Part shown: one piece after another, positions 1 through 17,289 of the stretch
Position numbering within the stretch: the stretch's first letter is position 1
Layout: each line of letters opens with the position of its first letter
DNA from: a virus
Lineage: Duplodnaviria > Heunggongvirae > Uroviricota > Caudoviricetes
Length of the DNA: 18,657 nucleotides
IMG/VR virus record: IMGVR_UViG_2923344815_000006
Strand: one strand, 5' to 3'
Position numbers and translations under genes: made by a program
Notes under the pieces: generated by a model
Seen by the model: the letters and a program-made list of their open reading frames with translations, nothing else
What the model was told of the DNA's origin: nothing
The model's database searches: none

Positions 1-504
1 TTACTGATAGTGTTTTATGTTCAGATAATGCCCGATGACCTTGTCATGCAGCTCCACCGATTTTGAGAACGACAGTGACTTCCGTCCCAGCCTTGCCAGA
101 TGTTGTCTCAGATTCAGATTATGTCGCTCAATGCGCTGAGTGTAACGCTTGCTGATAACGTGCAGCTTTCCCTTCAGGCGTGATTCATACAGCGGCCAGC
201 CATCCGTCATCCATACCACGACCTCAAAGGCCGACAGCAGGCTCAGAAGACGCGCCAGTGTGGCCAGAGTGCGTTCACCGAAAACGTGCGCCACAACTGT
301 CCTCCGTATCCTGTCATACGCGTAAAACAGCCAGCGCTGACGTGATTTAGCACCGACGTAGCCCCACTGTTCGTCCATTTCCGCGCAGACAATCACATCA
401 CTGCCCGGTTGTATGCGCGAGGTTACCGACTGCGGCCTGAGTTTTTTAAGTGACGTAAAACCGTGTTGAGGCCAACGCCCATAATGCGGGCAGTTGCCCG
501 GCAT
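1..504 (-). CDS. insB: IS1 transposase InsB (made as InsAB fusion by frameshift)
   Basis: 167-aa translation recognised as IS1 InsB; overlaps insA in the -1 frame as in IS1. Confidence 0.9.
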
Positions 505-698
505 CCAACGCCATTCATGGCCATATCAATGATTTTCTGGTGCGTACCGGGTTGAGAAGCGGTGTAAGTGAACTGCAGTTGCCATGTTTTACGGCAGTGA
601 GAGCAGAGATAGCGCTGATGTCCGGCGGTGCTTTTGCCGTTACGCACCACCCCGTCAGTAGCTGAACAGGAGGGACAGCTGATAGAAACAGAAGCCAC
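423..698 (-). CDS. insA: IS1 protein InsA
   Basis: 91-aa translation ([23 protein letters not shown]...) recognised as IS1 InsA with zinc-finger cysteines. Confidence 0.9.
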
Positions 699-912
699 TG
701 GAGCACCTCAAAAACACCATCATACACTAAATCAGTAAGTTGGCAGCATCACCCACCATGCAGATAGTTAGCAATTCTTTAGTATCTTTTCTGCTCACAC
801 CAACCCCCTTTAGCGTTGTTTAGAATGGCAATCATCATATATCCAAGACATGGCATTTGGTACATAGCTTGGGTCGGGATTTCAAATCCGATCCCCGTTG
901 ATGGGGCCGTTA

Positions 913-1290
913 CAGTACGCGCATATCCGCTTTATGTGAAACAGGAAGATTTTTCTGATATCACTGCCACAGCAAAACACCAATTTCGTGACCAGTACGC
1001 GCGCGAGGGGTATCAGTTGCAAAAATTTTGCAACTACGTCCGACCAGTACGCACACGATGGCGGGGGATACCATGAAACTGTTCTCTACACGAGACAGAG
1101 TGGTGGTGATGTGTTGATTATCGGCGTATATGCGCACAGGACGCGCTATGACGATGTTTTATGCGGGTACACCAATCACATGTATCTGATGTGATAAATC
1201 GTGTTACATGACATCTCATGTTGTGCTGGTGGTTATCACGACGTTCTGAATCTGGCCTTTGCCTGATATTTTGCGACAAGTACGCGCGCG
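913..1290. repeat. Cluster of four copies of a (C/A)AGTACGCGCGCG-like motif plus a perfect 19-bp palindrome, in a non-coding region
   Basis: Motif copies at 913-922, 992-1005, 1044-1057 and 1277-1290; palindrome GTTGCAAAAATTTTGCAAC at 1016-1034; only short overlapping ORFs in the region. Confidence 0.5.
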
Positions 1291-1622
1291 TAGCATCGAA
1301 ATTATCGGATGGCGTATGCTGCTGGCAATATGAAGACCGATAGTATTAACCGAAAAGCGATTAAGGAGTGCCAACTTTTCAGTAGAGAAACTAGCCAGCA
1401 TAGGAAAATGTAGAAATTACCCAATTAATAGGTAAAAGTTATTGACACAGCCTGTAGTGGATAACGATATGAATAAAAACCACATATAGTGGTTTTTCGT
1501 GAGTGATGATAGTATCTATGTTAGTTTCCTAAGTAACTGTGCATTGACATGTGGATAACTTCGGATAGAGTTACAGGCAACCGAGCCCGATCCTCTGTTT
1601 CTCCGCCGCCGATTTCAGGCAT

Positions 1623-2645
1623 GTGAGTTTCACGGTCGGGCCTTTTATTATCTTTTGTTTCGCCACTATGATTGCCGCAAAGCCTCATAAGGACTATCAC
1701 GAATTGCTAGGATTGCTACTTGAACGTGGCATGATTATCAATGATCGAAATCGTGCGATACGTAAGCTGTCGCAGGTTGGATATTATCGATTGTCAGGTT
1801 TTTGGTACCCATCAAGAATTATTGCGACAACAGATAAAGGTCTTTCGTACAGAACAGACCGATTTCTTGCTGGTACCAGTTTCGAGAAGACGTACGATCT
1901 ATATCTTTTTGACAAAAAACTGCGTCTTTTGATGATTGATGCTATCGAAAGAATAGAGATTCATGTTCGTTCAGTCATCGCGCATGAGGTTGGTCGCAAT
2001 GATCCACTTGCCTACATGTCATCAAAATACATTAATCCAAAATTCTCATCTGCCTTCGAGCATTGGGTGTATAAGCAAAAAGTAAAATTAGACGAAAGCA
2101 GAGATGACTGTATTGAATGGCATCGAAGCCAAGGCAAGGAGATTCCATTTTGGGTGGCGGTGGAGACCTGGGATTTTGGTCAGATGTCTAAATATTATGC
2201 GATGCTTAATGGTCATATGCAGGGGAAAATTATACGTCGTTTTGGCATTGATAATAAGCAGACATTTGCAAAATGGTTGAAGTGCCTTAATCTCATAAGG
2301 AATCGTTGCGCTCACCATTCCAGAATATGGAATAGAAAGCATCCCCGAGTTCCAGTACCGGATAATGAATACTTTGACGGACTTAATCTCCATCCAGAGA
2401 GTTGCGAGAGGATTTTTAGCGCGATCTGTATTATCTGGTACTTAGTTAAACGACTTGGTCCGGGATCAACATGGCTTCGGCAAATTGCAGACCTTATTGA
2501 CTCTAAACCAAATGTTCCCGGATGTGGATATGATTCAATGGGTTTACCTGCTAAAGGATTCCCACGAGAGAGATTCTCTCAGGACTTAGGTTTTGTTATC
2601 GCCGACAACGACCCTGTAGCTGAAGGGCGGAAAGGGAGCGATTGA
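1623..2645 (+). CDS. Abi_2 family abortive-infection protein (AbiD/AbiF-like)
   Basis: N-terminal YHELLGLLLERGMII...YYRLSGFWYP and the RNRCAHHSRIWN motif are typical of the Abi_2 family; visibly AT-rich. Start uncertain (1623 or ATG at 1666). Confidence 0.75.
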   Translation: MSFTVGPFIIFCFATMIAAKPHKDYHELLGLLLERGMIINDRNRAIRKLSQVGYYRLSGFWYPSRIIATTDKGLSYRTDRFLAGTSFEKTYDLYLFDKKLRLLMIDAIERIEIHVRSVIAHEVGRNDPLAYMSSKYINPKFSSAFEHWVYKQKVKLDESRDDCIEWHRSQGKEIPFWVAVETWDFGQMSKYYAMLNGHMQGKIIRRFGIDNKQTFAKWLKCLNLIRNRCAHHSRIWNRKHPRVPVPDNEYFDGLNLHPESCERIFSAICIIWYLVKRLGPGSTWLRQIADLIDSKPNVPGCGYDSMGLPAKGFPRERFSQDLGFVIADNDPVAEGRKGSD

Positions 2646-2674
2646 GCGATAAATATCATTTATACACTGATCAA

Positions 2675-3115
2675 TTACTGAAGCAGCGTATTGATTCTTT
2701 TAATATTGTTACCCTGACGCTTCCACGCGCTGTAAATGTCTTTATCCCACGCTTTACCAGCTTTTGTTTGGTAGCCTGCTTCATTGAGCCGTTCCGCTAT
2801 CACACGCCCATTATCAAATCCCTGTCGGATGGTATCGGCAATGATCTTTATAACTGCCGTTTCGTTATATGGCTTTGGTGGGATGTTCGGCTTTCCGGCA
2901 ATAAGCGACGCAGCGGCTTTTTCCATGCGCTCCACCAGCCCAAGCATTCGTGAATCAATAGACTTTTCCGGCTGTCCCAGCTTCATGCGAATCGCATCAA
3001 CAAGCCAGGAGGTTTTATCCCCTCCAGAAGCGAGAACAGACCGATTAAACTCATCCTGCAATTCAGATGGGATGCGGAACGCGACCAGATTAGATTTGCT
3101 CATTGCAAAGACCAT
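2675..3115 (-). CDS. Hypothetical DNA-binding protein (RHH-like N-terminus; C-terminal LNEAGYQTKAGKAW recombinase-domain-like motif)
   Basis: 146-aa ORF convergent with the Abi gene, ending next to iteron block A; alternative ATG at 3103 (MSKSNL...). Confidence 0.55.
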   Translation of the reverse strand: MVFAMSKSNLVAFRIPSELQDEFNRSVLASGGDKTSWLVDAIRMKLGQPEKSIDSRMLGLVERMEKAAASLIAGKPNIPPKPYNETAVIKIIADTIRQGFDNGRVIAERLNEAGYQTKAGKAWDKDIYSAWKRQGNNIKRINTLLQ

Positions 3116-3216
3116 ATCAGTGAGTAATATCCATACAGTATACCACTGTATAACACTGTTATACGCTCAAATATCAGCCAGAAAATAACGGACCAATCAC
3201 AAAGCTATCGCTGTGT

Positions 3217-3338
3217 TGTTGGTTCAGAGCTGGGCTGTGTTGGTTCAAAATGAGTTGATGTTGGTTCAATATTTCAGAAAAAACACAATAAAAACAACGA
3301 TCTTTACAAATTGAACCAACTGAACCAACTGAACCAAC
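3217..3338. repeat. Iteron block A (origin-like): 3 direct TGTTGGTTCA repeats, AT-rich spacer, 3 tandem TGAACCAAC repeats
   Basis: Direct repeats at 3217, 3238 and 3259 (21-bp spacing); tandem inverse-orientation repeats at 3312-3338; near-identical block at 10049-10160. Confidence 0.8.
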
Positions 3339-3374
3339 ACCTTTTTGCTTATCTATATAATCTGAGAGGCAGAA

Positions 3375-3662
3375 ATGATAAGGGACAGGAAAGCTGAAGA
3401 ACTGGAGTCAAAAGGGCTATACCGGAGAGCTGCCGCACGATGGGCAGAAGTCATGATGCTGGCAGATGGCGATAAAGAACGTGAACATGCAGCAAACAGA
3501 CGCTCTGAATGTATCCGTAAGGCGGCACGCCCACCAGCAACTACAGACAGATTCGGAGATTTAAGACAGGCAGTTAAGCGGACTCATTCGGCTCTTGGTA
3601 TGGATGAGGAAGCGAGAGGGTATTTCAGGCGTTATCGCGATAAAGATTGCCAGAGACAGTAA
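3375..3662 (+). CDS. PerC-family transcriptional regulator-like protein
   Basis: 95-aa ORF; ELESKGLYRRAAARWAEVMM...RRSECIRKA resembles the PerC family common in E. coli prophages; GAGAGG Shine-Dalgarno upstream. Confidence 0.6.
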   Translation: MIRDRKAEELESKGLYRRAAARWAEVMMLADGDKEREHAANRRSECIRKAARPPATTDRFGDLRQAVKRTHSALGMDEEARGYFRRYRDKDCQRQ

Positions 3663-3920
3663 TGCTCTCTCTGTTTTGGCAAATTACCCCTCACTTTGAA
3701 GGGATCGGAGCTATAAAAATGGTGTTATCCGGCTTCCTGCATTGCAGGTTTTCGAAAGAATCAATGGGTTAGGTTATCGTGCAAATTTGCACTCTGCCAG
3801 CCAACGCAATTTCTCGTTGGCGGAAATATCAGGTATTTACTGAACGAACGGTCTACCCGCCTGTTCAACTACCAGTTGTACATGGCTGCTTTATGTGCAA
3901 ATGGTGGTGAGAGAAAATTG

Positions 3921-4022
3921 TTTGGGGGTACTTTTGGGGGTATCTCCAAAGATGTAACTGGAAAATGTCTTTATATATCAATGTATTTTTATTGTTTGTT
4001 TTGTTCCTATTATCGCACCATT
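3921..4022 (+). other. Distal att junction of the integrative element (arm-type sites plus imperfect core copy), inverted relative to thrW
   Basis: TTTGGGGGTACTTTTGGGGGTAT (3921-3943) matches rc of 17079-17104 next to the integrase gene; TCCTATTATCGCACCA (4005-4020) matches the tRNA 3-prime end with one 1-nt gap. Confidence 0.6.
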
Positions 4023-4254
4023 AAAATCAAAGAGTTACCCCATATTTAAATACACCACGTTTCCTCCTGTGCCGTATTTGTGCCATTGTAACCTTGGCAA
4101 TTCATCAAAATACTGTTCTGACATCAGGCAGTGCAGGTGCAGACATTTAAGCCAATTGCTGCCGCCATTCTTTGACGTAGTCAATCAGGGCGCGGAGCTG
4201 GTGATGCTGCCAACTTACTGATTTAGTGTATGATGGTGTTTTTGAGGTGCTCCA

Positions 4255-4530
4255 GTGGCTTCTGTTTCTATCAGCTGTCCCTCCTGTTCAGCTACTGACG
4301 GGGTGGTGCGTAACGGCAAAAGCACCGCCGGACATCAGCGCTATCTCTGCTCTCACTGCCGTAAAACATGGCAACTGCAGTTCACTTACACCGCTTCTCA
4401 ACCCGGTACGCACCAGAAAATCATTGATATGGCCATGAATGGCGTTGGATGCCGGGCAACTGCCCGCATTATGGGCGTTGGCCTCAACACGGTTTTACGT
4501 CACTTAAAAAACTCAGGCCGCAGTCGGTAA
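4255..4530 (+). CDS. insA: IS1 protein InsA
   Basis: Translation identical to the InsA ORF of copy 1. Confidence 0.9.
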
Positions 4531-4952
4531 CCTCGCGCATACAACCGGGCAGTGATGTGATTGTCTGCGCGGAAATGGACGAACAGTGGGGCTACGTCGG
4601 TGCTAAATCACGTCAGCGCTGGCTGTTTTACGCGTATGACAGGATACGGAGGACAGTTGTGGCGCACGTTTTCGGTGAACGCACTCTGGCCACACTGGCG
4701 CGTCTTCTGAGCCTGCTGTCGGCCTTTGAGGTCGTGGTATGGATGACGGATGGCTGGCCGCTGTATGAATCACGCCTGAAGGGAAAGCTGCACGTTATCA
4801 GCAAGCGTTACACTCAGCGCATTGAGCGACATAATCTGAATCTGAGACAACATCTGGCAAGGCTGGGACGGAAGTCACTGTCGTTCTCAAAATCGGTGGA
4901 GCTGCATGACAAGGTCATCGGGCATTATCTGAACATAAAACACTATCAGTAA
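4449..4952 (+). CDS. insB: IS1 transposase InsB
   Basis: Translation identical to the InsB ORF of copy 1. Confidence 0.9.
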
Positions 4953-4970
4953 GTTGGAGTCACTACCTGC

Positions 4971-5546
4971 ATGGTGTACTTTTCAATTTATTTTTGTGCA
5001 TACATGGTAGTCCCAGATGAGTTTGAACATGGCAGTATTATTTATTCCATAACATTCTATTTTTTAGAGCTAACACCAATTTTGGCTATCCTTTTGGCAA
5101 TACATATTTATTTTTCCTTAAAAAAAGAATCGACTAATTGGGAGAAGGTATGGAGAGACAGAGGATTTCTAACATCACCTAAAGATGATGCATATGAGAG
5201 TGATTTTTCTGACTTTATAACAAACTACTACTCCAGCGAACAATTCAAAAATAGACTGTCTGATGTTTGGGAAACAGCAATGTATTCCATAGGGATTATA
5301 TTATTGATACTTACTGGTATCGCTCAATATGTTTTTAACATTGACTTATCATTAAATCCTGAAAATTTAATATCGCCATTGATTTTTGGTGAGATATTGA
5401 TCTTCTCATTCGGAATTTTCTTGAGTGTTGTTCTCTGCTCATTATGCAAACTACTGACTAACAGGTATCCAGGTGAAGCAAGGAGAGCAAGAAAGGCAAA
5501 TCCATATTATCTTTTATTTCCTAATGGAGACAGCAGAGATATCTAA
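4971..5546 (+). CDS. Small integral membrane protein (3-4 predicted TM helices), 5-prime end disrupted by IS1
   Basis: 191-aa AT-rich ORF with hydrophobic stretches at about residues 1-13, 23-50, 103-122 and 133-162; starts 4 bp after the IS1 end; its predicted original start and first 15 codons lie at 798..754 on the minus strand. Confidence 0.6.
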   Translation: MVYFSIYFCAYMVVPDEFEHGSIIYSITFYFLELTPILAILLAIHIYFSLKKESTNWEKVWRDRGFLTSPKDDAYESDFSDFITNYYSSEQFKNRLSDVWETAMYSIGIILLILTGIAQYVFNIDLSLNPENLISPLIFGEILIFSFGIFLSVVLCSLCKLLTNRYPGEARRARKANPYYLLFPNGDSRDI

Positions 5547-5564
5547 GCCATCCATGGCTACCAG

Positions 5565-7670
5565 TTATTGAGCTTCTTTTTGTGATGCCTGTGCGACTCT
5601 GGTGAGCGATTGTGTGACCGTACTGATCGCTCTGTCATATGCTGTGCTACCTTTTGGCGTATTTGCCAGACGTAACAAGGCATTTCGTATAACAGGGCTT
5701 TCGTATGCCTTCGCTGCTCCGCCTACGGCACCAGCAGCAGGAACAACAAACGCAGCCGTTTTTAGCATCCCCGCTAATACTGCTGCGTTTATGATGCCAC
5801 CACCAACTAACAATCCATAAAGCTGCTGACCATTTAAGTTTTGAACGTTCGCTTTTGCCGCGTGTCTTGTATCGTTGAGGTATTTAATAACGCCGTCCAG
5901 TTCCTTTCCATGTACGCCTTTAAAGAAAGTTGCTGATTGCTTCCTGTTCCGGTGTAACGCATTAATAAACTTCTCAACACTGATATTTCCAGACGGATCA
6001 GTCGCCTTATCTACAGCATTCTGAACTATGGCTGCTCGTGCGTTTTGCCTACCATTGTCATCCAGAAGCCTGTAAAGCTGAGAACGTTCTGATGGGCTTT
6101 GGCTAAAAACGAGTTTTGTTACATCCTCAGGCGTGGCCTTGCCGCTGGCTATTGCCTTTTGAACGCGCGTTCTTCCCATCATGTCATTGAATTTAGACCA
6201 TGAGCGATCAACCCTTGCCATATTAATGGCTTCGTCTGCTCCAAGATTTTTGGCTACGGCTTTTTTCATATCCGCCGTATATGCCTTGTAGATAATATCG
6301 CTGGCTTTCTGGAGCGTATCTTTATCAACAGTGTCAGATGACGCCATAAATCGCTTTCGAAGATCGGTTCTGTTTTCCCTCGCCAGACGCAGGTCATTTG
6401 GTCCGCTGGTGATATCGTCTTTAAATTGCTGCAAGACTTTTACCGCGGCTCTATCCTGAGATTTGCCCGGGCGGCTTAACACGGCAATCTGATTGTCGAT
6501 AGCTTTTACCGTGTTTGAGAGATCGACAGGGGTATCCCCCATAGCGTCAATTATGCGGTTATATCGCTTTCCTGCTGCCTCAATGAATTTTTGTTGCCCT
6601 TTAGTCGCAGATTCATAAAGCTGTTTATCAGAAATGCCACCCAGACCATCGCTAAATGTTCTGACTAAATTTTCTCGTGCTTGTTGTTGATTCAGCCGAT
6701 TCTTACCGGTTCCAAAAAAAGGAACTCTTTCGCCTAATGTCTGAGCCTGACTCTGCATAAAGGTTTTATCTTTCAGCATGTCACTGGTCATTAACGGCAG
6801 ATTTCTTTCCGATGCAAAGTCGACAGCAGCCTTTGCTTCAGGCGACATATCACCACGAACAGCCCTCGAAACCGCACTCGCTGTATTTTCCAGCCCCTTA
6901 CCAATACCACCAATGCCAGCAGAAATTACCGTTTGTAACGGATCAATATCTTCTCCACCAGCAAGACTGGTGGCTCCCTGTAGTGCTAAATCTGTAGCTG
7001 CTGATTTTCCTATGGCACTAAGCACCGTTCCAGCCCTGCCCGCTGGTGTAAACGCCAACGCATTAGCAAGAAACGAGGTCAGGTCTTGCGGTGATAAACC
7101 CGGCTTGTTCAGGGCATAATCACCTGATGGCAGAGAAACGATAGTATTCCCCTTCTCATCCTGCCTTAATGTCGCCCCCATTCCCTGAAGAATCTTTTCC
7201 TGAGACGCGTCAGAGCCGAAAAGTTGAGACCATCCAGCCTTTAGGGCATCCATGCTTAGTGAGTTCAATTCTGGGGCAGAGGCGACATTTTGCAGTCTCT
7301 CCATCTCTGGAGTCATTCGGCTTTCGCCTGTTATAGCATCGCGCATCGCAGCCCCAAGACTGGCTCCCTGTTCTGCTGAACGCTCAAGCCCCTCTCTTTG
7401 CTGAGTAGCTAACTTTGCATACCCTGACGCAAGAGAATTATCAGATGATGTATGTTGAATATTTTGAGTTGCTGATTGGGATCGGTCTATTTCATTCGTT
7501 GATGGTAGTGGATAGGCAGCATAAAAAGCCTGCTTAGCCTGCTCTACACTTTCTCCGGCTTGCGGGGCCACGACTTCATTGAAGTATTGCTCCTGAGCCT
7601 GCGCTTTTTGTTCTGGTGCTAACGCCTGATACTGTGGAGAGGCGATAACATCTTTCCATGCTTTAGCCAT
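5565..7670 (-). CDS. Uncharacterised 701-aa Ala/Gln/Ser-rich protein with C-terminal hydrophobic Gly/Ala-rich segment
   Basis: Long ORF coupled to the upstream gene by a TAATG stop-start overlap; no enzymatic motif I recognise; hydrophobic segment LYGLLVGGGIINAAVLAGMLKTAAFVVPAAGAVGGAAKAY near the C-terminus. Confidence 0.7.
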   Translation of the reverse strand: MAKAWKDVIASPQYQALAPEQKAQAQEQYFNEVVAPQAGESVEQAKQAFYAAYPLPSTNEIDRSQSATQNIQHTSSDNSLASGYAKLATQQREGLERSAEQGASLGAAMRDAITGESRMTPEMERLQNVASAPELNSLSMDALKAGWSQLFGSDASQEKILQGMGATLRQDEKGNTIVSLPSGDYALNKPGLSPQDLTSFLANALAFTPAGRAGTVLSAIGKSAATDLALQGATSLAGGEDIDPLQTVISAGIGGIGKGLENTASAVSRAVRGDMSPEAKAAVDFASERNLPLMTSDMLKDKTFMQSQAQTLGERVPFFGTGKNRLNQQQARENLVRTFSDGLGGISDKQLYESATKGQQKFIEAAGKRYNRIIDAMGDTPVDLSNTVKAIDNQIAVLSRPGKSQDRAAVKVLQQFKDDITSGPNDLRLARENRTDLRKRFMASSDTVDKDTLQKASDIIYKAYTADMKKAVAKNLGADEAINMARVDRSWSKFNDMMGRTRVQKAIASGKATPEDVTKLVFSQSPSERSQLYRLLDDNGRQNARAAIVQNAVDKATDPSGNISVEKFINALHRNRKQSATFFKGVHGKELDGVIKYLNDTRHAAKANVQNLNGQQLYGLLVGGGIINAAVLAGMLKTAAFVVPAAGAVGGAAKAYESPVIRNALLRLANTPKGSTAYDRAISTVTQSLTRVAQASQKEAQ

Positions 7671-9148
7671 TAATCACCCCATAGTGAAGAAAAGTTACTG
7701 CTGGCTGCTGGCTGTGATACCTGCTCAGATTGCGGCAATGTCTGCGACGAAGAAGCAGTTCCTCTGTCAACTGCTGAAATAACCCGCAAAGCATCATAAG
7801 TTCGACCAGAAGCAGCTTTCAGCGAATTGAACTGGTTTTCCATCTTCCGGCGCTTGGTATCAATGGTTTTTGTGGAATCACCAGGCTGAGGGAAATACAT
7901 TTGATAATATTTGGACATTTCAGCTGGTAGGATAGATGCCCCTGTTTCCTGACGGAGTATTGCCATTATTGCGTCATTAGCATTAACAACGTATTGCTGC
8001 TCTGCTGGGCTGAGCGTTAAGTTAGCCAGCGTCCCATTACCCAAAGCATTATTAATGATCGCCACTCGCTGTGGGCTAAGCTGGTCTTTCAGTGTATCTA
8101 TTGAATCAAGAGCATCCCTAACCCTGTATGCAAATCCAGCAGCTTTTTTAGCCCCTTCTGGCGACTTTTCCATGATCTTTTGGGCTGTTGGCAAAGCTAT
8201 TGGACGAAACCCATCTCCAGATATTGGCTGGTTTAGTTTTCCCTGCTCTTCACTTCCGTCTGTGTAGTATTTTGTGACAGTGCCATCATCGTTTTCTCTA
8301 ACACTCATTAATTTTTTGGCGTTTGTATTAATTCCAGCCGCTGCCGCAAATGCCGCCGCCCCCTCTGGATCCGCCTTTAACATTTGAGCGTACTGATTGT
8401 AATTCTGCATTGCTGCTGTTGGTGCATATGCTGACGTTAACGCATTTGCTCGGCTAATATCCTGCCCTCTCGCCTGAAGTGCTTCGCCAGCCTGATTGCT
8501 GCGGATTGTCTCTGCCAACTTGCCACGCTCAATATCCCGACCTTCCATTTGATCTTTGATATCGAAATACTTCTCATGACCGAGAGAAAACAGCGCCAGA
8601 TTACCTGCGAAATGCTGGAAGCCCTGCGGGTCATTAACCTGCATTTCAGCAATAGTTTCTGGAGGGATACCTAAACGACGCATCTCCTGCTCATTATCCA
8701 TCATGAACCTGCCAAATGCGCCCTGACCAAGCGATGAGGCTACCTGTGCTTTGAGCGCCAGATTGCCATAATCATCCCTTTGAGCATCATCGACATAACT
8801 CATCCCTTTACGGACTTCCTCAAACTCTTCTGGGAATGCTGTAATAAGATTACGCATCTGCTCCCTGTCACCGGACGCATAAGCATCTGCATAAGCTTTC
8901 TGGAATGCCGCTTTACGCTCCTGCTGTTGCTGCTGCTTATAAATATCAGCAACGCCAGCCAGACCACGAAGACCTGTCAGAGCAACGTTATTTGCACCTG
9001 AGCGAGCCAGTTCATTGTTTTCGCGGATCAGACCAAGCGTTGCGTTAATGTCGCTTGCCTTTGGCGCATTCTCATTTTGCGTACCGATGCCAGCCAGAAA
9101 ACCACCAGAATTAATACCCTGTTGCCACGTAGCCATTGATTTACCCAC
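7670..9148 (-). CDS. Uncharacterised 492-aa Ala/Gln-rich low-complexity protein
   Basis: Long ORF; probable true start is ATG at 9136 (MATWQQ...) rather than the GTG at 9148; poly-Q stretch and Ala-rich tracts. Confidence 0.7.
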   Translation of the reverse strand: MGKSMATWQQGINSGGFLAGIGTQNENAPKASDINATLGLIRENNELARSGANNVALTGLRGLAGVADIYKQQQQQERKAAFQKAYADAYASGDREQMRNLITAFPEEFEEVRKGMSYVDDAQRDDYGNLALKAQVASSLGQGAFGRFMMDNEQEMRRLGIPPETIAEMQVNDPQGFQHFAGNLALFSLGHEKYFDIKDQMEGRDIERGKLAETIRSNQAGEALQARGQDISRANALTSAYAPTAAMQNYNQYAQMLKADPEGAAAFAAAAGINTNAKKLMSVRENDDGTVTKYYTDGSEEQGKLNQPISGDGFRPIALPTAQKIMEKSPEGAKKAAGFAYRVRDALDSIDTLKDQLSPQRVAIINNALGNGTLANLTLSPAEQQYVVNANDAIMAILRQETGASILPAEMSKYYQMYFPQPGDSTKTIDTKRRKMENQFNSLKAASGRTYDALRVISAVDRGTASSSQTLPQSEQVSQPAASSNFSSLWGD

Positions 9149-9314
9149 GTCCAGTTAAAGTGTAAGCCAGCGCCTTATCCATTAATCCCCGAGCAATTTC
9201 GTGGATCGTTGGCGCAACTCCTACCTCTGATTTTTTACGCTGCTCCTCCTGAATTTTCTTTATCGCTTCCATTTGCTTCTCACTTATCAATACTGGCTTT
9301 ACTGAAATAGCCAT
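9141..9314 (-). CDS. Small 57-aa protein, possible ribbon-helix-helix regulator (not in supplied ORF track)
   Basis: ATG at 9314 preceded by AAGGGGG Shine-Dalgarno; translation MAISVKPVLISEKQMEAIKKIQEEQRKKSEVGVAPTIHEIARGLMDKALAYTLTGRG; stops 5 nt before the 492-aa gene ATG. Confidence 0.5.
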   Translation of the reverse strand: MAISVKPVLISEKQMEAIKKIQEEQRKKSEVGVAPTIHEIARGLMDKALAYTLTGRG

Positions 9315-9348
9315 AACGCCCCCTTAGAACTGTATAAAACAACAGTCA

Positions 9349-9378
9349 TTATAGTTTCATAAAACGCAACATTCATCA
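9349..9378 (-). promoter_or_regulatory. Putative promoter of the 57/492/701 operon (consensus -10, weak -35)
   Basis: TATAAT on minus strand at 9354..9349, about 35 nt upstream of the 57-aa ORF start; no good -35 hexamer. Confidence 0.3.
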
Positions 9379-9407
9379 TTGTGATTGCAAAATATGAAAC
9401 AAATAGC

Positions 9408-9442
9408 ACAAAAAAATGCCACCGTTCAGTAGCTGGTGGCAT
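9408..9442 (-). terminator. Rho-independent terminator downstream of the 153-aa gene
   Basis: Minus-strand hairpin with 8-bp stem ATGCCACC/GGTGGCAT and 11-nt loop, followed by a run of 7 T. Confidence 0.7.
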
Positions 9443-9494
9443 CGTTCTGTATGTCAGGTTTTGACAGTTTTTTTATGGACTCTAAAAACTATAT

Positions 9495-9956
9495 TTATGG
9501 AGTCGCATTACTCTTCATGGCGTGAGCTTTCCTGTTCTCTCTTTGTTCCTGGTTCCATGGATAAGTGTAATTGCCACCAGCAAAGACCATATTGATTTTG
9601 TGAGGAACCATTAAAGCGATATCAGCACTCATGTCACTGAATGAAACACAGTGCAGACGTTCAAGCCATTTGTATGCTGCTGCCGCTTCTCCCCACAAAT
9701 TAATCCCTGCAAGTTCAACAATATCTCTGATGGAGCAGATATCAACCATCCCGTTAACGCCTGTAAAACGGCGTTTAAAGTCGCCAAGATACTTTCTGAA
9801 AAGAGTTGCTTTCATTGGTTCAGAAAGGTCTATGTATGGGAACACAACCACATCAAGCAGCATCTCCCTTCTGTTGTTCATCGGTATTACAGATGGCAAA
9901 TCGGATACTTTGCCAAATACATGATGAAAAGCCTTTGCGATTATCTTCATCATCAA
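9495..9956 (-). CDS. Hypothetical 153-aa protein
   Basis: ORF with GGGAG Shine-Dalgarno; probable start ATG at 9953; between iteron block B and its own terminator; no recognised motif. Confidence 0.6.
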   Translation of the reverse strand: MMMKIIAKAFHHVFGKVSDLPSVIPMNNRREMLLDVVVFPYIDLSEPMKATLFRKYLGDFKRRFTGVNGMVDICSIRDIVELAGINLWGEAAAAYKWLERLHCVSFSDMSADIALMVPHKINMVFAGGNYTYPWNQEQRENRKAHAMKSNATP

Positions 9957-10048
9957 TCTCCCACTGAAACCAGTGATGTGGTGTTCAGATTTCGTAAAAC
10001 ACTCTCTAATGCCAGCCAGATGTTGTGCTCATCAATTCAGTCACGTTG

Positions 10049-10160
10049 TGTTGGTTCAAAATGCCGTGTTGTTGGTTCAGTGTTGGTTCAATAAAAAGAA
10101 TAAAATCCTTATAAAACAATACTCTTTACAAATTGAACCAACTGAACCAACTGAACCAAC
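10049..10160. repeat. Iteron block B (origin-like), same organisation as block A
   Basis: TGTTGGTTCA at 10049, 10070 and 10081; tandem TGAACCAAC at 10134-10160; shares CTTTACAAATTGAACCAACTGAACCAACTGAACCAACACCTTTT with block A; lies just 3-prime of the helicase-like gene. Confidence 0.8.
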
Positions 10161-10185
10161 ACCTTTTCTACGCACATGAAGAAGC

Positions 10186-11316
10186 TCATTCTTCAGATGA
10201 GTTGTAATCTCCTGGCTGGTAATTGAGTACATAAACGTTTATTTGTCGTCCCTGAATACGTGGTGATTTTCTTTGGTATCCACGACCGCTGTTTGGTGGG
10301 GTTAGCATCCCGGCTTTTTTCAACACTTCAGCAAACTGTTTTGCGTTGAAACCACATGCGATCTCCTTTTCAAATGTGGCCGGGAATGTGTAGAAAATCA
10401 TTGGGCTTTCGTCATGTTCTCCACGCTGACGGTATCCGGCTAAATCTTTGATGGGCAAATCTGCCGGGCTGTATGGAAATGGTGCAAAACGGCTAAGCCC
10501 ATAGGCATTAAGAAATGCCTCCGTTTGTTCAATAATCTGCTGATGCTCTTTGTTACCTGTGCCGAACTCGCGCAACCATGCGTTATAGCTGTGCTGTATC
10601 GCATCACGGCATGTCTGAGCATCCCAGCCTGTTACAACCTCGCCTAACAACAATGCGGCCTCCAGAATGGCAAATCGCGCGGCTACACGGTGAACCTGCT
10701 CACCATAATCGGATGGGATCAGGCTTCTCCATCTGCTTTCGCAGTCACGAACAGTTTTAATAGCCTGTTGCTGGTGGTCTGCCAGCCATTTAATCCACTC
10801 ACGCCCGGACGCGCCGTGGTGATGCTGGTAAGCGTCTTTCAGTGCGTCTGCGTGCTGTTTTCCGTTCTGGTAATCGTGAAAGCGTACTGCTTTACTCAAC
10901 GGAATATTCAGCAGTCGCACCATTTGCCCGGCTTTGGTTTTTCGCCCGGAAGTAGCGATAAATGTTTCTAAATCCATTTCTCCGGTGCTGATTGCCACTG
11001 TACGCCAGCGTTTTAGATCCCGGTTTCCACCATCTTTAGCGCCTTGCAGTTTCCCTACACCGTTAAATAACGCATAGGCAGACTGTGAAACACTGACAGG
11101 ATCAGCGCCCTGACCAACTTCATCAAGCGGCATTAGTCCGTCATTGTGGGCGGCAGCTTCATTTGCCAGCCCCAGCGCGGTTCCGTACCACGTCAGCCGC
11201 AGTAAATCAGGGTTGCCGTATAAGCTGCTCGCCACGTTTGCCGTGGTGGTCTTACCTGCGCTCGACTGCTCATAGAAATGAATGCCGAACCCGTCAGCGC
11301 CCACCAGCCCAATCAA
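10186..11316 (-). CDS. DUF927/SF3 helicase-like replication protein (P4 alpha / PICI Rep C-terminal type), apparently 5-prime-truncated
   Basis: Walker A (SSAGKTT) within ...AAHNDGLMPLDEVGQ...RWRTVAISTGE...KAGQMVRLLNIP, typical of the DUF927 helicase domain; ORF-track start is a TTG; in-frame stop at 11374-11376 with no ATG upstream. Confidence 0.65.
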   Translation of the reverse strand: MIGLVGADGFGIHFYEQSSAGKTTTANVASSLYGNPDLLRLTWYGTALGLANEAAAHNDGLMPLDEVGQGADPVSVSQSAYALFNGVGKLQGAKDGGNRDLKRWRTVAISTGEMDLETFIATSGRKTKAGQMVRLLNIPLSKAVRFHDYQNGKQHADALKDAYQHHHGASGREWIKWLADHQQQAIKTVRDCESRWRSLIPSDYGEQVHRVAARFAILEAALLLGEVVTGWDAQTCRDAIQHSYNAWLREFGTGNKEHQQIIEQTEAFLNAYGLSRFAPFPYSPADLPIKDLAGYRQRGEHDESPMIFYTFPATFEKEIACGFNAKQFAEVLKKAGMLTPPNSGRGYQRKSPRIQGRQINVYVLNYQPGDYNSSEE

Positions 11317-11429
11317 TGGCGCTGCCAGTGCTGCGCCGATCCCGGTCAGCCCAGCACATGAGGCCAGTTGTTTTCAGACGCACTGATAACCTGACGGATA
11401 AGATCAATGTTTCGCATTCTGGCCCCCGT

Positions 11430-12032
11430 TTAGTGCGTCACTGGTGCTTCTGGGATGCCGTTTTCGTTTAGTTCGGCAATAAAGCTGTTGTGAAGATCGG
11501 CAAGCACTTCTCGCCCAAACGAAGTGAGTGTTCCCTGTTCGACATCGAACATGTTGCTGTAAAAAATGATGGCATTCTTTGTTCCGACATCAACACCATA
11601 TTTCTCGATCATTGCGCCCTCAATGTTGTTTGCCATAGCGAGGCGCTCTGCTACTGGATACAGCGGCATGGCGACGATGCCATTGGAATAAACAGAAACC
11701 ACGGAATGATTGCCACTGTCATCAATAATGCTGACGGTGCCGTTTCCCTTTCTCATTTCATTGATGAATGCTGTTGCTATCAGCCAGCGCCACATAATCA
11801 CGTGATGCTGTGATGTGTAATCGAAATATCCCTGGTTGCCGCCACTGGCAATAGCGAGATGTATAAACATGCCTTCATCTGGTTTATCGTCATAATCCCC
11901 GGCATCCAGACGATTTACGGCATCAATATATGAGACGGTCTCAACGCGTTCTGTCATGCCATCGTTGCTGCGGTGCATGATGTTTACGCCGTCAGGCGTT
12001 GCTTCTGCATGGAAGGTTAAGAAATTATTCAT
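11430..12032 (-). CDS. Hypothetical 200-aa protein (upstream of the helicase-like gene, different frame)
   Basis: ORF-track ORF 11430..12137; probable start ATG at 12032 (MNNFLTF...), overlapping the upstream gene stop by 8 nt. Confidence 0.5.
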   Translation of the reverse strand: MNNFLTFHAEATPDGVNIMHRSNDGMTERVETVSYIDAVNRLDAGDYDDKPDEGMFIHLAIASGGNQGYFDYTSQHHVIMWRWLIATAFINEMRKGNGTVSIIDDSGNHSVVSVYSNGIVAMPLYPVAERLAMANNIEGAMIEKYGVDVGTKNAIIFYSNMFDVEQGTLTSFGREVLADLHNSFIAELNENGIPEAPVTH

Positions 12033-12246
12033 GTTTCGCCTCGCCTGAATGATTCTGTAACTCATATTTGCCCAACAATTCGTCTGCTTCCTGAATAGCT
12101 TCTGGTACGCCATTGAGCAGTGACATAACCGCGCCAATCATTAACTTGTCTCTGTTGCTGGGGCTGGCCCCTTCAAGCCAGAACCCTAAAACAGTCTGAA
12201 CCTGTTCGATGCGACATTGCGCTTCAATGAGCTGGATGTTGGTCAT
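12025..12246 (-). CDS. Hypothetical small protein (73 aa)
   Basis: ATGA stop-start overlap with the upstream gene at 12243-12246. Confidence 0.5.
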   Translation of the reverse strand: MTNIQLIEAQCRIEQVQTVLGFWLEGASPSNRDKLMIGAVMSLLNGVPEAIQEADELLGKYELQNHSGEAKHE

Positions 12247-12506
12247 TTCGCACTCTCCACATCGATTAAACTGATATCTATCAGGGAGGTAACTTTTTGT
12301 AGCCAGCTATTGATTACTGTCGCCTGTTCCCCTCCCACCGAGGGAATAATCTCATTCATCACATGAACCAGACCTGTGCGCGCTCTGGTAAGCCGTTCAG
12401 TCGCGCAATCTGCGGGAGTGAATGTGTCTGGATATGGCTCTTCGCGCCCCAGCAATGATTCAATTTCCAGCTCACACGGATGACGATAAATTAAGTTGAT
12501 ATTCAT
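12243..12506 (-). CDS. Hypothetical small protein (87 aa)
   Basis: ATGA stop-start overlap with the upstream gene at 12503-12506. Confidence 0.5.
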   Translation of the reverse strand: MNINLIYRHPCELEIESLLGREEPYPDTFTPADCATERLTRARTGLVHVMNEIIPSVGGEQATVINSWLQKVTSLIDISLIDVESAK

Positions 12507-12697
12507 TTTTCACCCCCAAGAATTACCAGCTCGGCACGGGCATCGTTAACCAAAGATGAGCACGCTTTAATCGCATCCACGACATCAGCAGCGTCCATTT
12601 CTTCAGCCGAAAGACTGACAGCAACCAGGACAGCCGCTGCTTGCTCGATTAATTGAAGTGCGGACGTAAGGCGAGGGGTATTAATTGAGTTATTCAT
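12503..12697 (-). CDS. Hypothetical small protein (64 aa from ATG 12697; ORF-track alternative start 12754)
   Basis: Internal ATG ([10 protein letters not shown]...) 8 nt upstream of the preceding gene stop, consistent with the coupling seen along this gene chain. Confidence 0.45.
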   Translation of the reverse strand: MNNSINTPRLTSALQLIEQAAAVLVAVSLSAEEMDAADVVDAIKACSSLVNDARAELVILGGEK

Positions 12698-13757
12698 TGG
12701 TTGCCCCCGTTTTGCATGGCATTTGTCCACCTTCCAGCAGGAAATGAACGTCACGAACGGCGAGATCCAATATCGCGAGTAACGCCTTCAGTTTTTCGTC
12801 TCGTGAGGGAGAGTTGCTCACCAGAATGTCATTAATCACTTCTGTCAGTGTGATGATCTGGCTTGTGCGTTCGAGGGGATCCATATGCACATCGTAGGTT
12901 TTAATCATGTGCCACCTCCATGCGGATACGACCAGCAAAAAAGCAGACGTGATCGCGCACCAGAGAACGGCGAGCATCGCGTTCAGACTCGGCAGCAATA
13001 TGATGAATTTTGGCGGTAATTGTCGGGCAATCGCGGCGAACTGCGGCGATAATCCAGATAAATTGCGGTTTTTGGGTAGGGGTAGTAGCCAGCATGTGGC
13101 AGCCTCCATTCGATAGCATGTAACGCTACCACCGGAAACGCCAATTTCGCTGGTGGTAGCCCAGACAGGGTTGGCGTAACCGGCTCGAATGGATACCGGC
13201 GCTTCCGAAGAAGCCCCTGCCTGAGCCACCATTGATTGACAAAGGCGCTGGATTATACACCAACGCCCAAAAAATGGGTGAGTCAGACCTACGACATAAA
13301 AAAAGACGCTCGGCGCGTCATATGTCGCCATTCGATTTACCAGGACGCCAATCCCGGCACCCGTTTTATGAGGTGCCTTATAACCATAAACCGTGTTGCC
13401 GCATAACGGCAAGCTCTTTTTTATGGACTCCGAAAACTCACTATTGGAAGAACCAGAAGCACAGTACATCGCGCTCATTTCGTTAACGTCACGCGCGTGG
13501 ACGAATGTTTTTGTGGAGTCACTACACGAGCAGAACAGGTCATCTACGACCAGAAATTCTCTGGCGCAGCCGCTGACCTTCTCAACGCTAACATCATCGA
13601 CCGTGATTTCTGACATAGTTAAGGCATCCGCTCCTACCACCAGCAAATGATAAACTTTGCTTGTATCTGCTGTATTAATGCCTGACTTTGCTGTCATATT
13701 GCTGGATTTTGGCGACATGCCAGCCAGTGAAAATGTCTTCTTCTGGGCGGTTAGCAT
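12690..13757 (-). CDS. Long ORF of uncertain coding status; C-terminal 72 codons from ATG 12907 look like a genuine small helical protein
   Basis: 356-codon open frame coupled to the upstream gene, but the central part is Trp/Cys-rich and not protein-like, and 12900-13120 is open in three frames. Confidence 0.3.
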
Positions 13758-13933
13758 TTGTTAACCTCCGCGAACTCCTTCATGAAACGTGCCAGCGGTT
13801 GTACGCATGGCGATTGATACCCGTCGCGATAAAACGTCACTCGGTTGTGAGACACGCTTTCGACAGTAACGAGTGCTCCGTGGGCATCTTTGTAGCGTTT
13901 TTGAGGTTGTGGTGTTCCTGTCGGCTTAAACAT
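13751..13933 (-). CDS. DUF4222-like small phage protein
   Basis: 60-aa product from ATG 13933 (ORF-track ORF starts at 14020); RYKDAHGALVTVESVSHNRVTFYRDGYQSPCVQPLARFMKEF resembles the DUF4222 family. Confidence 0.6.
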   Translation of the reverse strand: MFKPTGTPQPQKRYKDAHGALVTVESVSHNRVTFYRDGYQSPCVQPLARFMKEFAEVNKC

Positions 13934-14759
13934 GGACCGCCTCCAGACGCTTAGCGAGCCAGCGTTGCGACAGGCGGGTGAGTTCTCCTTTGCGCTGCTC
14001 ATATTCCATGCCCATATCAATTAACGTGATATTGGTGCTTTCGAGATATGAGAGGTGCTCAAGCTGTTCTGCGTTCATATGGTCGCGAGGTTCGCCAGAA
14101 TAGCCATTTATCCGCGCCCACTGCTTAGCAGTTAGCCCACCAAGAACGATACGAGAAATCATATTGCTCTCGTTTGTGTAGTGGTGTTGCTGCGTCGTTT
14201 TCCCCTGCTCGGCACGGGCCATGTTCAGCGCATCGCACATTGGCTTAAAGTTGTTTGCGGCACTGATACGGGCTTTTAGCTGGCGACGATAGCGGGCGGC
14301 GATTTCAGGAACGCTACGCTGTAATTCTTCCTCGCACTGGATGAAATAACGACGGATAGCGCGACCCTGATCATTGCGTTCGATCATTGCCAGTTCTTTC
14401 GCCATTCCGACACTTAACAGATAGTCTTTGCCGGGTCTGCCAGAGTGCTTAATCTTGCTGTAAGCCGCGCCATTCGGGCTTTTCCCCAAATTTGGGGAAA
14501 TTGTTTTATGGACTGAGTAATCGTGCCCAATGGTGAAGTCATATTCAGAGATGCGATCAGTGATCCATGTAGAGAAGTCTTTTCCCACGCCCAACGCTTT
14601 GTGTAACGCTTTTGCGCTAACAATATTGGTTTCACGCCCACCTATATGACCAGGAATAACCGGGACAATTGCGGCAAATTCATTACCGTTAATTGTGCCC
14701 AGAGAGGCGTTCAGATGAGGGGCAGCCTCAGAAATTAATCTGCTTTTTTCGATGTTCAT
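13926..14759 (-). CDS. Phage antirepressor-like protein (Bro-N / KilAC type)
   Basis: 277-aa ORF; DYLLSVGMAKELAMIERNDQGRAIRRYFIQCEEEL is characteristic of antirepressor DNA-binding domains; GGAG Shine-Dalgarno. Confidence 0.65.
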   Translation of the reverse strand: MNIEKSRLISEAAPHLNASLGTINGNEFAAIVPVIPGHIGGRETNIVSAKALHKALGVGKDFSTWITDRISEYDFTIGHDYSVHKTISPNLGKSPNGAAYSKIKHSGRPGKDYLLSVGMAKELAMIERNDQGRAIRRYFIQCEEELQRSVPEIAARYRRQLKARISAANNFKPMCDALNMARAEQGKTTQQHHYTNESNMISRIVLGGLTAKQWARINGYSGEPRDHMNAEQLEHLSYLESTNITLIDMGMEYEQRKGELTRLSQRWLAKRLEAVHV

Positions 14760-14771
14760 TTTCAGTCTCCG

Positions 14772-15203
14772 TTAGGCGGCGTTAAACGCGTCCGGGTAGA
14801 GTTTCAGAATGTCGGCAATTTCCTGCTGAGAAAGTCCGTTGTGATCATTTATGTTCGCAAGATGGTTAATATGAGTGATCACTTTCAGAACATCACCACG
14901 GCAGGAGAAACGGTAGCGAAGGTGTGTTCCGATACCATCAGGATTCTTTTCGTCGATACGCTCCAGAGTGATTCCGAGCTGGCGTTCTAACTCTGTTGCA
15001 TAGTTACGACCAGAAGACAGACGGCAGTAGCGAAGAATGTCATTTTCTGTCCATCCCTCTATACCAGTACGCAGCATATAGACTCGGGCACGATGCTTTT
15101 TCGGCGTGCGCTTTGGTGCTTGAAGGGATTTTGTCAGGGGCGTAACATCAGATACGCGAATATCTGAATTAGCCGCCTGTAATGGGCGGTTTTTCTTTTC
15201 CAT
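14772..15203 (-). CDS. Hypothetical phage-related protein (143 aa)
   Basis: ORF coupled to alpA by a TGATG stop-start overlap; basic N-terminus; no recognised motif. Confidence 0.55.
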   Translation of the reverse strand: MEKKNRPLQAANSDIRVSDVTPLTKSLQAPKRTPKKHRARVYMLRTGIEGWTENDILRYCRLSSGRNYATELERQLGITLERIDEKNPDGIGTHLRYRFSCRGDVLKVITHINHLANINDHNGLSQQEIADILKLYPDAFNAA

Positions 15204-15406
15204 CAGGCCACCTCGTCTCTAGATTCTAATATACACTTCTCAATCCATTCATCTATTTCAGACTCAACAAAAGCAATTGCCCGACTTCCAATTTTTACCT
15301 GTTTAGGGAACCTCCCCTGACTAATAAGACGATAAATCCATGCTTTGCTATAACCAGTTCGCCTTTGAACTTCAGAGAGACGAATTAATGAATTGTAATT
15401 AGCCAT
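15203..15406 (-). CDS. alpA: AlpA-family transcriptional regulator (excisionase-like HTH)
   Basis: 67-aa product IRLSEVQRRTGYSKAWIYRLISQGRFPKQVKIGSRAIAFVESEIDEWI matches the AlpA family; located next to the integrase gene. Confidence 0.85.
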   Translation of the reverse strand: MANYNSLIRLSEVQRRTGYSKAWIYRLISQGRFPKQVKIGSRAIAFVESEIDEWIEKCILESRDEVA

Positions 15407-15833
15407 TTATTAATATCCTGTACTAATGACGCAATAACCCCCTCCTGCAACGAATGGCGAGAGTTTTATTTGCGTCAAATGTCGAATACGCCAAAGACCA
15501 CAATATGAAAAACATATTGCGGTCTTTTATAAAAGATAGTCAGATTGTTTTGGTTTGTTTGCTCCACAAGGGTAGAGCTACCCTGCATTTCGGCAGGATC
15601 ACGCTATTAGGCGTGACATCCAGTAGTTTTAAAGAACAATTGCGCTTTGTCAGCGCCAAAGCCTGTTAAAGAACATTCCGCTTTTCAGCAGCGTAGAAGG
15701 CTCAATACACCTTCGTTTATAAAAGAGCGATTGCCCTTCTCCAGGGCTAACTGTTAAATAGCAATCCTCTGTGAGTTTTTATCAATCTACTCCCCTATAC
15801 TTTAGTAAACCTCTGTATACTTGTCCAGTTGTT

Positions 15834-17048: not shown

Positions 17049-17049
17049 T

Positions 17050-17213
17050 TGGGGGTACCTCCACTAAACCGAACAGCAAATACCCCCATAAGTACCCCCA
17101 TCTGACCGTAGATTTTGAGGGACTTTAGTAGACGTCAAAAGACGAACGGGGCTTTAATACGTGGATTATAAGGGGTTTTGAAAGACTTTAGTAGACTTGG
17201 GGAGATGTTTGAA
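17050..17213 (-). other. Proximal att arm between tRNA-Thr and integrase, with arm-type repeats
   Basis: GGGGGTA-type motifs at 17051-17057, 17082-17088 and 17094-17100; 13-bp direct repeat GACTTTAGTAGAC at 17121-17133 and 17184-17196; same arm motif recurs at 3921-3943. Confidence 0.6.
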
Positions 17214-17289
17214 TGGTGCCGATAATAGGAGTCGAACCTACGACCTTCGCATTACGAATGCGCTGCTCTACCAACTGAGCTATATCGGC
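17214..17289 (-). tRNA. thrW: tRNA-Thr (anticodon CGT)
   Basis: Reverse complement reads GCCGATATAGCTCAGTTGGTAGAGCAGCGCATTCGTAATGCGAAGGTCGTAGGTTCGACTCCTATTATCGGCACCA: canonical cloverleaf, CGT anticodon, CCA end. Confidence 0.95.

Follow-up and report, generated by a model that had tools for sequence, protein, structure and literature searches.

The window analysed here, an 18,657-nucleotide stretch of DNA recorded as viral (IMG/VR IMGVR_UViG_2923344815_000006), contains a reading frame of 191 codons that opens directly beside an IS1 element (Table 1). Whether this frame is a gene in its own right or what an insertion left of a larger one is the immediate question; if it is the latter, the whereabouts of the missing end and the identity of the original product must also be accounted for. 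The reading that we favour, to which we assign a probability of roughly 85%, is that a gene of 204 codons, encoding a SieA-family protein of the inner membrane with four helices, has been split by IS1; positions 4968-5546 are its 3' 94%, and the segment adjoining it is inverted.

Table 1. Features of the window, in order of position (rc, reverse complement; L001, the corresponding locus of E. coli strain F5656C1).
Feature	Position	Strand	Remarks
IS1 copy 1	1..753	-	last 15 bp cut by window start; IRL end at 753; with insA/insB ORFs
CACCATGCA, rc of the 9-bp target duplication	754..762		encodes codons 13-15 (C-M-V) on the minus strand
Segment inverted relative to intact loci	754..4199		3,446 bp; 100% identity to reversed L001 9077-5632; contains sieA 5' end, spacer, AbiD (1623-2645), 146-aa ORF (2675-3115), PerC (3375-3662) and end of yagP-like LysR pseudogene
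Orphaned codons 1-12 of the sieA-like gene	763..798	-	GTG at 798-796
Native Shine-Dalgarno AAGGGGG	804..810	-	5 nt before GTG
CGCGGAGCT, flank of copy 2 IRL	4191..4199		unrelated to TGCATGGTG
IS1 copy 2	4200..4967	+	complete, 768 bp; insA 4255-4530, insB' 4449-4952
TGCATGGTG, 9-bp target duplication	4968..4976	+	codons 13-15 of the original gene
Residual ORF	4971..5546	+	191 aa, residues 14-204 of the SieA-like protein; EYV85060.1 / WP_050436865.1
P22 gene-16-like ejection protein gene	5565..7670	-	31% over 435 aa to P22 gp16, E=2e-52; PHROG 770
P22 gene-20-like ejection protein gene	7670..9148	-	Pfam Inj_translocase 5.5e-84; 55% over 239 aa to P22 gp20
AlpA	15203-15406
Integrase	15834-17048
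tRNA-Thr	17214-17289
proA	17404-18657

IS1 is about 768 bp long; its terminal inverted repeats, each of about 23 bp, are imperfect, its gene insA is overlapped by insB', and its insertion duplicates 9 bp of the target site. Copy 2 agrees with this description in its length, terminal repeats and insA/insB' frames and, at the sieA-like site, in its 9-bp duplication. Its termini are GGTGATGCTGCCAACTTACTGAT and ATCAGTAAGTTGGAGTCACTACC, its two overlapping frames encode 91 and 167 amino acids, and its counterpart in E. coli genomes is annotated as an "IS1 family transposase, programmed frameshift". Copy 1 is the reverse complement of 4200-4952, identical at 753 of 753 positions with zero mismatches. 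The 9-mer TGCATGGTG abuts the IRR of copy 2, and its reverse complement abuts the IRL of copy 1.

An initial annotation, made from the letters alone, had proposed that a membrane-protein gene was split here by IS1 copy 2 and that its 5' end now lies at 798..754 on the opposite strand. Undoing the inversion in the manner suggested, by joining the reverse complement of 763-798 to TGCATGGTG and to 4977 onward, does restore the frame: the result is one uninterrupted 204-codon ORF with the product MSRKDTKELLTICMVYFSIYF... A chance match of a given 9-mer has a probability of approximately 4e-6, and we rejected chance as an explanation for this match and for the in-frame join alike. Of 5,426 complete E. 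coli genomes, 102 carry the reconstructed 192-nt junction as one continuous stretch, and in nine of these the identity is 100%; the gene proposed from the letters exists undivided elsewhere.

Alignment by BLAST to the intact locus of strain F5656C1 (L001) makes the insertion, the duplication and the inversion directly visible. Positions 754-4199 correspond to L001 9077-5632 in the reverse direction over all 3,446 nucleotides, and 4962-11348 resumes at L001 9063; from these coordinates it follows that the intact site holds TGCATGGTG once, with copy 2 abutting 4968 in the window, and that the whole segment between the two IS1 copies is inverted. Gene order reflects the same change, being PerC(-)/hyp(+)/Abi(-)/gene(+) at intact loci and Abi(+)/hyp(-)/PerC(+) in the window. 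The window is otherwise collinear with F5656C1, except for the two IS1 copies, the inversion and a 1.5-kb deletion in a primase gene. The far breakpoint, 4199/4200, falls within a yagP-like LysR pseudogene common to 3,274 genomes, K-12 included. This arrangement predicts that copy 1 is flanked on its outer side, immediately beyond the left edge of the window, by AGCTCCGCG, the reverse complement of CGCGGAGCT and thus a second 9-bp duplication; the sequence to the left would be expected to read ...ATTGCACCAAAGCTCCGCG and then GGTAGTGACTCCAAC. Exact-pattern scans of GTDB species genomes and JGI metagenomes returned no match to the predicted outer junction, GCACCAAAGCTCCGCG followed by GGTANTGAC.

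The orientation of the segment deserves separate scrutiny. Two simple IS1 insertions, each with a direct 9-bp duplication, could have occurred with no fixed inversion, the orientation given then reflecting either a choice made during assembly or one of the states of a population in which recombination between the inverted IS1 copies flips the segment; the gene would still be split by IS1, and its 5' end may then lie directly upstream of copy 2. Such doubt arises because the copies are 100% identical over 753 bp, a length exceeding short reads, and because assembly can misorient a segment that lies between identical inverted repeats of 768 bp. The junction of IS1 with TGCATGGTG also occurs in the draft genome GCA_000614435.2 and in run SRR5296512, and as their contigs (L005, L006) end inside IS1 these two assemblies lend the orientation no support. 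Against the doubt, the window is continuous through both copies, a 4.70-Mb contig with the 191-aa product suggests a finished assembly, and nothing in the data contradicts the orientation as given. We therefore regard a merely apparent inversion as unlikely; the reconstruction presupposes that the segment truly has the orientation assembled.

The position of the native start was established from intact genes. In strain F5656C1, PGAP (NCBI) annotates a 204-aa CDS, WP_032328543.1, that begins exactly at the predicted GTG. Close homologues form three clusters only among 5.8 billion proteins, two from E. coli at 99% identity and one from Citrobacter freundii at 50%, all of 204 aa. The Citrobacter homologue aligns with the reconstructed protein from residue 1, with D5, K7, E8, T11, V15 and Y16 conserved, and its DNA has a GTG/ATG start at the equivalent place. 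An exhaustive profile search extended this agreement to relatives in Serratia fonticola (38%) and in Providencia/Proteus (31%), which keep the N-terminal extension and the first hydrophobic helix. Pairing with the anti-Shine-Dalgarno sequence gives -11.4 kcal/mol for the native GTG, as compared with -0.9 for the ATG of the 191-aa frame in its intact context and -5.9 for the same ATG at the IS1 junction. The GTG and the Shine-Dalgarno sequence 5 nt upstream of it had both been pointed out by the initial annotation, which had proposed a comparison with the N-termini of intact homologues as a check. It had likewise held that the additional residues complete the first transmembrane helix: the peak of the first hydrophobic segment (Kyte-Doolittle, 19-residue window, with a threshold of 1.6) is 2.11 in the full protein and 0.88 in the 191-aa remnant, which retains a hydrophobic stub of 14 residues.

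ATG 4971 as a conserved native start was considered and rejected. The alignment column of M14 holds F, L, S or I in homologues and never Met, so that none begins at the equivalent of this codon with a ribosome-binding site of its own, and the codon has no Shine-Dalgarno sequence in the intact context. A weaker form of the idea is that ATG 4971 is a genuine or at least sufficient start, that the 191-aa product is functional, and that IS1 altered the regulation of the gene rather than inactivating it. Some pipelines choose the 191-aa ATG ORF even at intact loci (L007-L010), and annotation by itself is thus ambiguous on the start. The end of IS1 also provides a GGAG at 4956-4959, 11 nt before the ATG, exactly where the initial annotation had placed it, and it is this motif that underlies the -5.9 kcal/mol at the junction. 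Moreover, the type A SieA of P22, which has three helices and lacks an N-terminal extension, is functional (PMC10883804); as this protein naturally does without the first helix, loss of the helix need not abolish activity. These points are to be set against the far stronger pairing found for the GTG in the intact context (-11.4 versus -0.9 kcal/mol for the ATG), against the conservation of the upstream residues at 31-50% identity, and against the stub itself, which is neither a full helix nor absent. Transcription is a further obstacle. The sigma-70 scan found no site reaching its threshold across the copy-2 IRR junction; by inspection the junction offers a weak TTGGAG-17-TACTTT, from which the transcription start would fall downstream of ATG 4971. 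On balance a functional 191-aa product appears decidedly improbable to us, and we retain the view that the frame is a remnant.

The outward -35 box of IS1 is known to form hybrid promoters (PMC8764528). With no junction promoter passing the scan and the weak element misplaced for ATG 4971, expression of the remnant would depend on read-through from IS1. The same scan found no sigma-70-like site just upstream of the native GTG. The orphaned 5' end, read on the minus strand over 730-798, encodes a 23-residue peptide (MSRKDTKELLTICMVGDAANLLI, followed by a stop) that runs into copy 1 with the same polarity as insA. As a separate observation, positions 740-768 of the plus strand contain a promoter-like TTGGCA-17-GATAGT, a pattern match at 9 of 12 positions, built from the outward -35 box at the left end of copy 1 together with its flank; it would be directed antisense across the orphan fragment and toward the AbiD gene.

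SieA proteins are prophage-encoded and block the injection of DNA by P22-like phages. The split gene is, by homology and position, a candidate superinfection-exclusion gene of this family, an identity newly assigned here. The protein matches PHROG 7745, "superinfection exclusion SieA-like" (E=4e-4 and 2e-4), and BLASTP aligns it with P22 SieA at 29% over 108 C-terminal residues (E=3e-8) and with the SieA of prophage HS1 of E. coli HS at 33% over 118 residues (E=1e-9), both alignments spanning the NRYPGEA motif. In an alignment of 34 sequences (the query, its close relatives, remote profile matches, P22 SieA and HS1 SieA), PHROG 7745 is matched by 32 members; N107, R108, R178 and P180 are invariant, and A183 is nearly so. 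The published motif is FxRYPxEAxxFNK (PMC10883804), and the corresponding region, TNRYPGEARRARK, matches six of its nine defined positions (R, Y, P, E, A and K; the two F and the N are not matched). A precomputed match to Pfam PF26849 (SIEA) is weak. Searches of Pfam, NCBIfam and PADLOC gave no match for the split protein; we judge that the copy of Pfam used is without the SIEA model, since P22 SieA itself obtains no score there. The reconstructed protein has four hydropathy segments above threshold, in agreement with the three to four transmembrane helices of SieA, and an AlphaFold2 model from a three-sequence alignment was too poor for use (pLDDT 49.6). Neither megablast of the reconstructed junction against phage and plasmid collections nor tblastn of the protein against phages, even at E=10, gave any match, and the clade thus appears to be absent from sequenced phages and plasmids.

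Synteny points the same way. The split gene is convergent with the gene-16 homologue, with 18 nt between their stop codons, and the P22 layout has 22 nt between gene 16 and sieA. Gene 20 lies beyond the gene-16 homologue; the island holds no gene 9 and no complete P22-like prophage. The Citrobacter homologue at 50% identity has gene 16 on one side and mnt/arc/ant/tailspike on the other, within a complete P22-like prophage. In this same Citrobacter freundii prophage the gene-20 homologue is interrupted by an element of the IS21 family (rve and IstB; L011 11512-13313).

In the history that these observations give, IS1 inserted after codon 15 and duplicated TGCATGGTG. The 3.4-kb stretch reaching to a second, identical and inverted IS1 in the yagP-like pseudogene is inverted, and the present form is X-d / IS1(R..L) / rc(t) / rc(S) / rc(d) / IS1(L..R) / t / gene, where t and d denote the 9-bp targets in the gene and at the yagP-like site, respectively, S the 3.4-kb segment and X the chromosome to the left. 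Two routes could lead there. In the first, an IS1 resident at either site would have undergone intramolecular replicative transposition, that is, duplicative inversion; in the second, two opposite and independent insertions would have been followed by RecA-dependent homologous recombination. Intramolecular replicative deletions and inversions made by IS1 are documented (PMC9330008). The one-step route is slightly favoured because it takes two events rather than three and because the copies are identical, as duplication predicts. The two-insertion route, which we would place somewhat short of even odds, draws on the abundance of IS1 in this lineage, the closest relatives having 32-40 IS1 matches each, and on a relative with an independent IS1 in the AbiD-sieA spacer, from which it follows that repeated local insertions occur. 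Both routes leave identical structures, so that sequence alone cannot decide between them, and as no IS1 was found at either site among the complete E. coli genomes searched, there is no intermediate to tell them apart.

The relative in question, E. coli FMU073332, is a related ETEC strain whose IS1 (L015 5919-6616) lies approximately 400 bp upstream of an intact sieA-like gene; the A+T-rich AbiD-sieA spacer has thus been a repeated target of IS1. A JGI metagenome contains a further truncated allele of the sieA-like gene (P0005, 105 aa). Up to residue 74 this allele hardly differs from P0001, the start residue aside, and it then continues into unrelated sequence, a divergence that suggests an independent disruption elsewhere.

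These events have several consequences for the gene. Its native ribosome-binding site, GTG and first 12 codons are now found at 810-763 of the opposite strand, 4.2 kb away and pointing into copy 1, and the native promoter presumably moved along with them. The remnant has lost the charged cytoplasmic N-terminus and one third of the first transmembrane helix; its transcription could come only from within or through IS1, and a fortuitous GGAG of moderate strength precedes its ATG. We infer that its exclusion activity is lost or strongly reduced, a view tempered by the activity of type A SieA without the first helix. The case is one of ordinary IS1-mediated gene decay (pseudogenisation) in a member of a known family. 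The interpretation offered by the initial annotation is supported by these results, and each of its statements about the sequence was confirmed.

At thrW there is an island, of which this locus makes up the distal end. The annotation of E. coli O6:H16 str. 99-3165 includes the 191-aa product, and the closest intact relatives are strains rich in IS1 and mostly of human origin, among them one of type O6:H16. The decaying thrW island belongs to an IS1-rich lineage, probably ETEC O6:H16. Decay is evident elsewhere in it. The TOPRIM/DUF927 primase gene (10186-11417, minus strand) has a deletion of approximately 1.52 kb relative to F5656C1 (L001 15450-16972), with a joint at 11347/11348 that features 2 bp of microhomology. 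The frame shifts there and stops after 23 codons, and the replication gene of the island is thus dead in this genome.

Several further features of the island may be recorded. Two iteron-like clusters, at 3218-3338 before PerC and at 10050-10160 before the primase gene, lie 6.8 kb apart with flanks 84-95% similar, each consisting of three copies of GTTGGTTCA followed by three of TGAACCAAC. The first is inside the segment inverted by IS1, and the relative orientation of the two clusters is thus flipped with respect to intact loci. We take the pair to resemble the ori/crr repeats of the satellite phage P4. The backbone of the island (5565-17289) is PICI/P4-like, with an integrase, AlpA, an AntA-like antirepressor, an Ash-family protein and a primase; it carries intact P22-type ejection genes 20 and 16 together with the sieA-like gene, and is without gene 7, a tailspike or head genes. 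It may be either what is left of a tandem prophage or a satellite that carries an entry/exclusion module. An abortive-infection gene of the AbiD type (1623-2645, plus strand; Pfam Abi_2 2e-52, PADLOC AbiD 8e-58) adjoins the sieA-like gene, so that a small anti-phage cluster occupies this end of the island; owing to the inversion, the AbiD gene is reversed with respect to the remainder of the island. Between 12567 and 15400, about 2.6 kb with an Ash-family ORF (12690-13757) and an AntA-like ORF (13926-14759) has no counterpart in the F5656C1 island, where the interval from the small ORFs to the AlpA-like gene is occupied by a single 126-aa ORF; the island thus varies in its regulatory module.

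The value of these findings lies mainly in annotation, and they open no new biological question. The 191-aa "hypothetical protein" of the ETEC O6:H16 genome is a 5'-truncated pseudogene or remnant, and its annotation should add the orphan piece at 754-798. About 2% of complete E. coli genomes have the intact 204-aa gene, which may now be annotated as a candidate for superinfection exclusion of the SieA family, and the type-C-like branch of SieA would be extended beyond Providencia, Morganella and Proteus. The allele is also a natural loss of the N-terminus, and as such provides material for asking whether the extra first helix matters. A more ambitious reading is that the thrW island, with its int-AlpA-primase backbone and paired iteron clusters, is a PICI/P4-like satellite and no prophage remnant, that it deliberately carries a matched module of gp20, gp16 and a type-C-like SieA, combining entry machinery with the exclusion of competitors, and that IS1 switched the exclusion off in one ETEC O6:H16 lineage. 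We offer it as a long shot; were it true, a type-C-like SieA previously unreported in E. coli would be part of such a satellite.

Comparison with known systems places both the rearrangement and the protein. The former is a clean, textbook inversion bounded by IS1, with a history that remains legible in the reverse-complementary duplications of the target. As in duplicative inversions of the IS1 and IS26 type, two identical inverted IS copies bracket an inverted segment, and reverse-complementary copies of the target stand one inside and one outside it; the likeness is qualified in that recombination between two independent insertions leaves the same end product.

Among SieA proteins, that of P22 (type A) resembles the split protein in its C-terminal 108 residues, including RYPGEA, in being a small multi-helix membrane protein, and in the placement of its gene, convergent with and immediately after ejection-protein gene 16. 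However, identity over the full alignment is only about 16%, and the P22 protein has 164 aa, whereas the split protein, at 204 aa, is 40 residues longer at the N-terminus and has an extra hydrophobic helix. The gene here also differs in lying within a thrW island that is without most P22 genes, and it is an exclusion candidate known from its sequence. SieA types B and C possess one additional helix at the N-terminal end, and their N-terminus is cytoplasmic (PMC10883804); it is precisely this portion that the 191-aa remnant is missing. The type B protein of HS1 (EcHS_A0321), shown by Leavitt et al. 2024 to exclude P22-like phages (PMC10883804), shares with the split protein NRYPGEAR..K, an extended N-terminus that includes an added helix, and the position after gene 16; it differs in overall identity (about 17%), in falling into a separate cluster, and in that HS1 is a complete P22-like prophage. 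When the alignment is clustered, the present clade is about 16-17% identical to both types, which are 25% identical to each other, and it groups with Providencia/Proteus proteins, including those of Providencia rettgeri and Proteus mirabilis, at 31% identity. Type C is described as having an N-terminal extension of about 40 residues with an extra helix and about 10 additional C-terminal residues (PMC10883804), and the split protein, likened to it by this published description, similarly has an extension of about 40 residues and a C-terminus longer than that of P22 SieA. Type C is reported as confined to Providencia, Morganella and Proteus (PMC10883804), whereas the present clade occurs in E. 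coli, Citrobacter and Serratia. Judged by the published description, then, the clade is probably type C itself or a sister of it.
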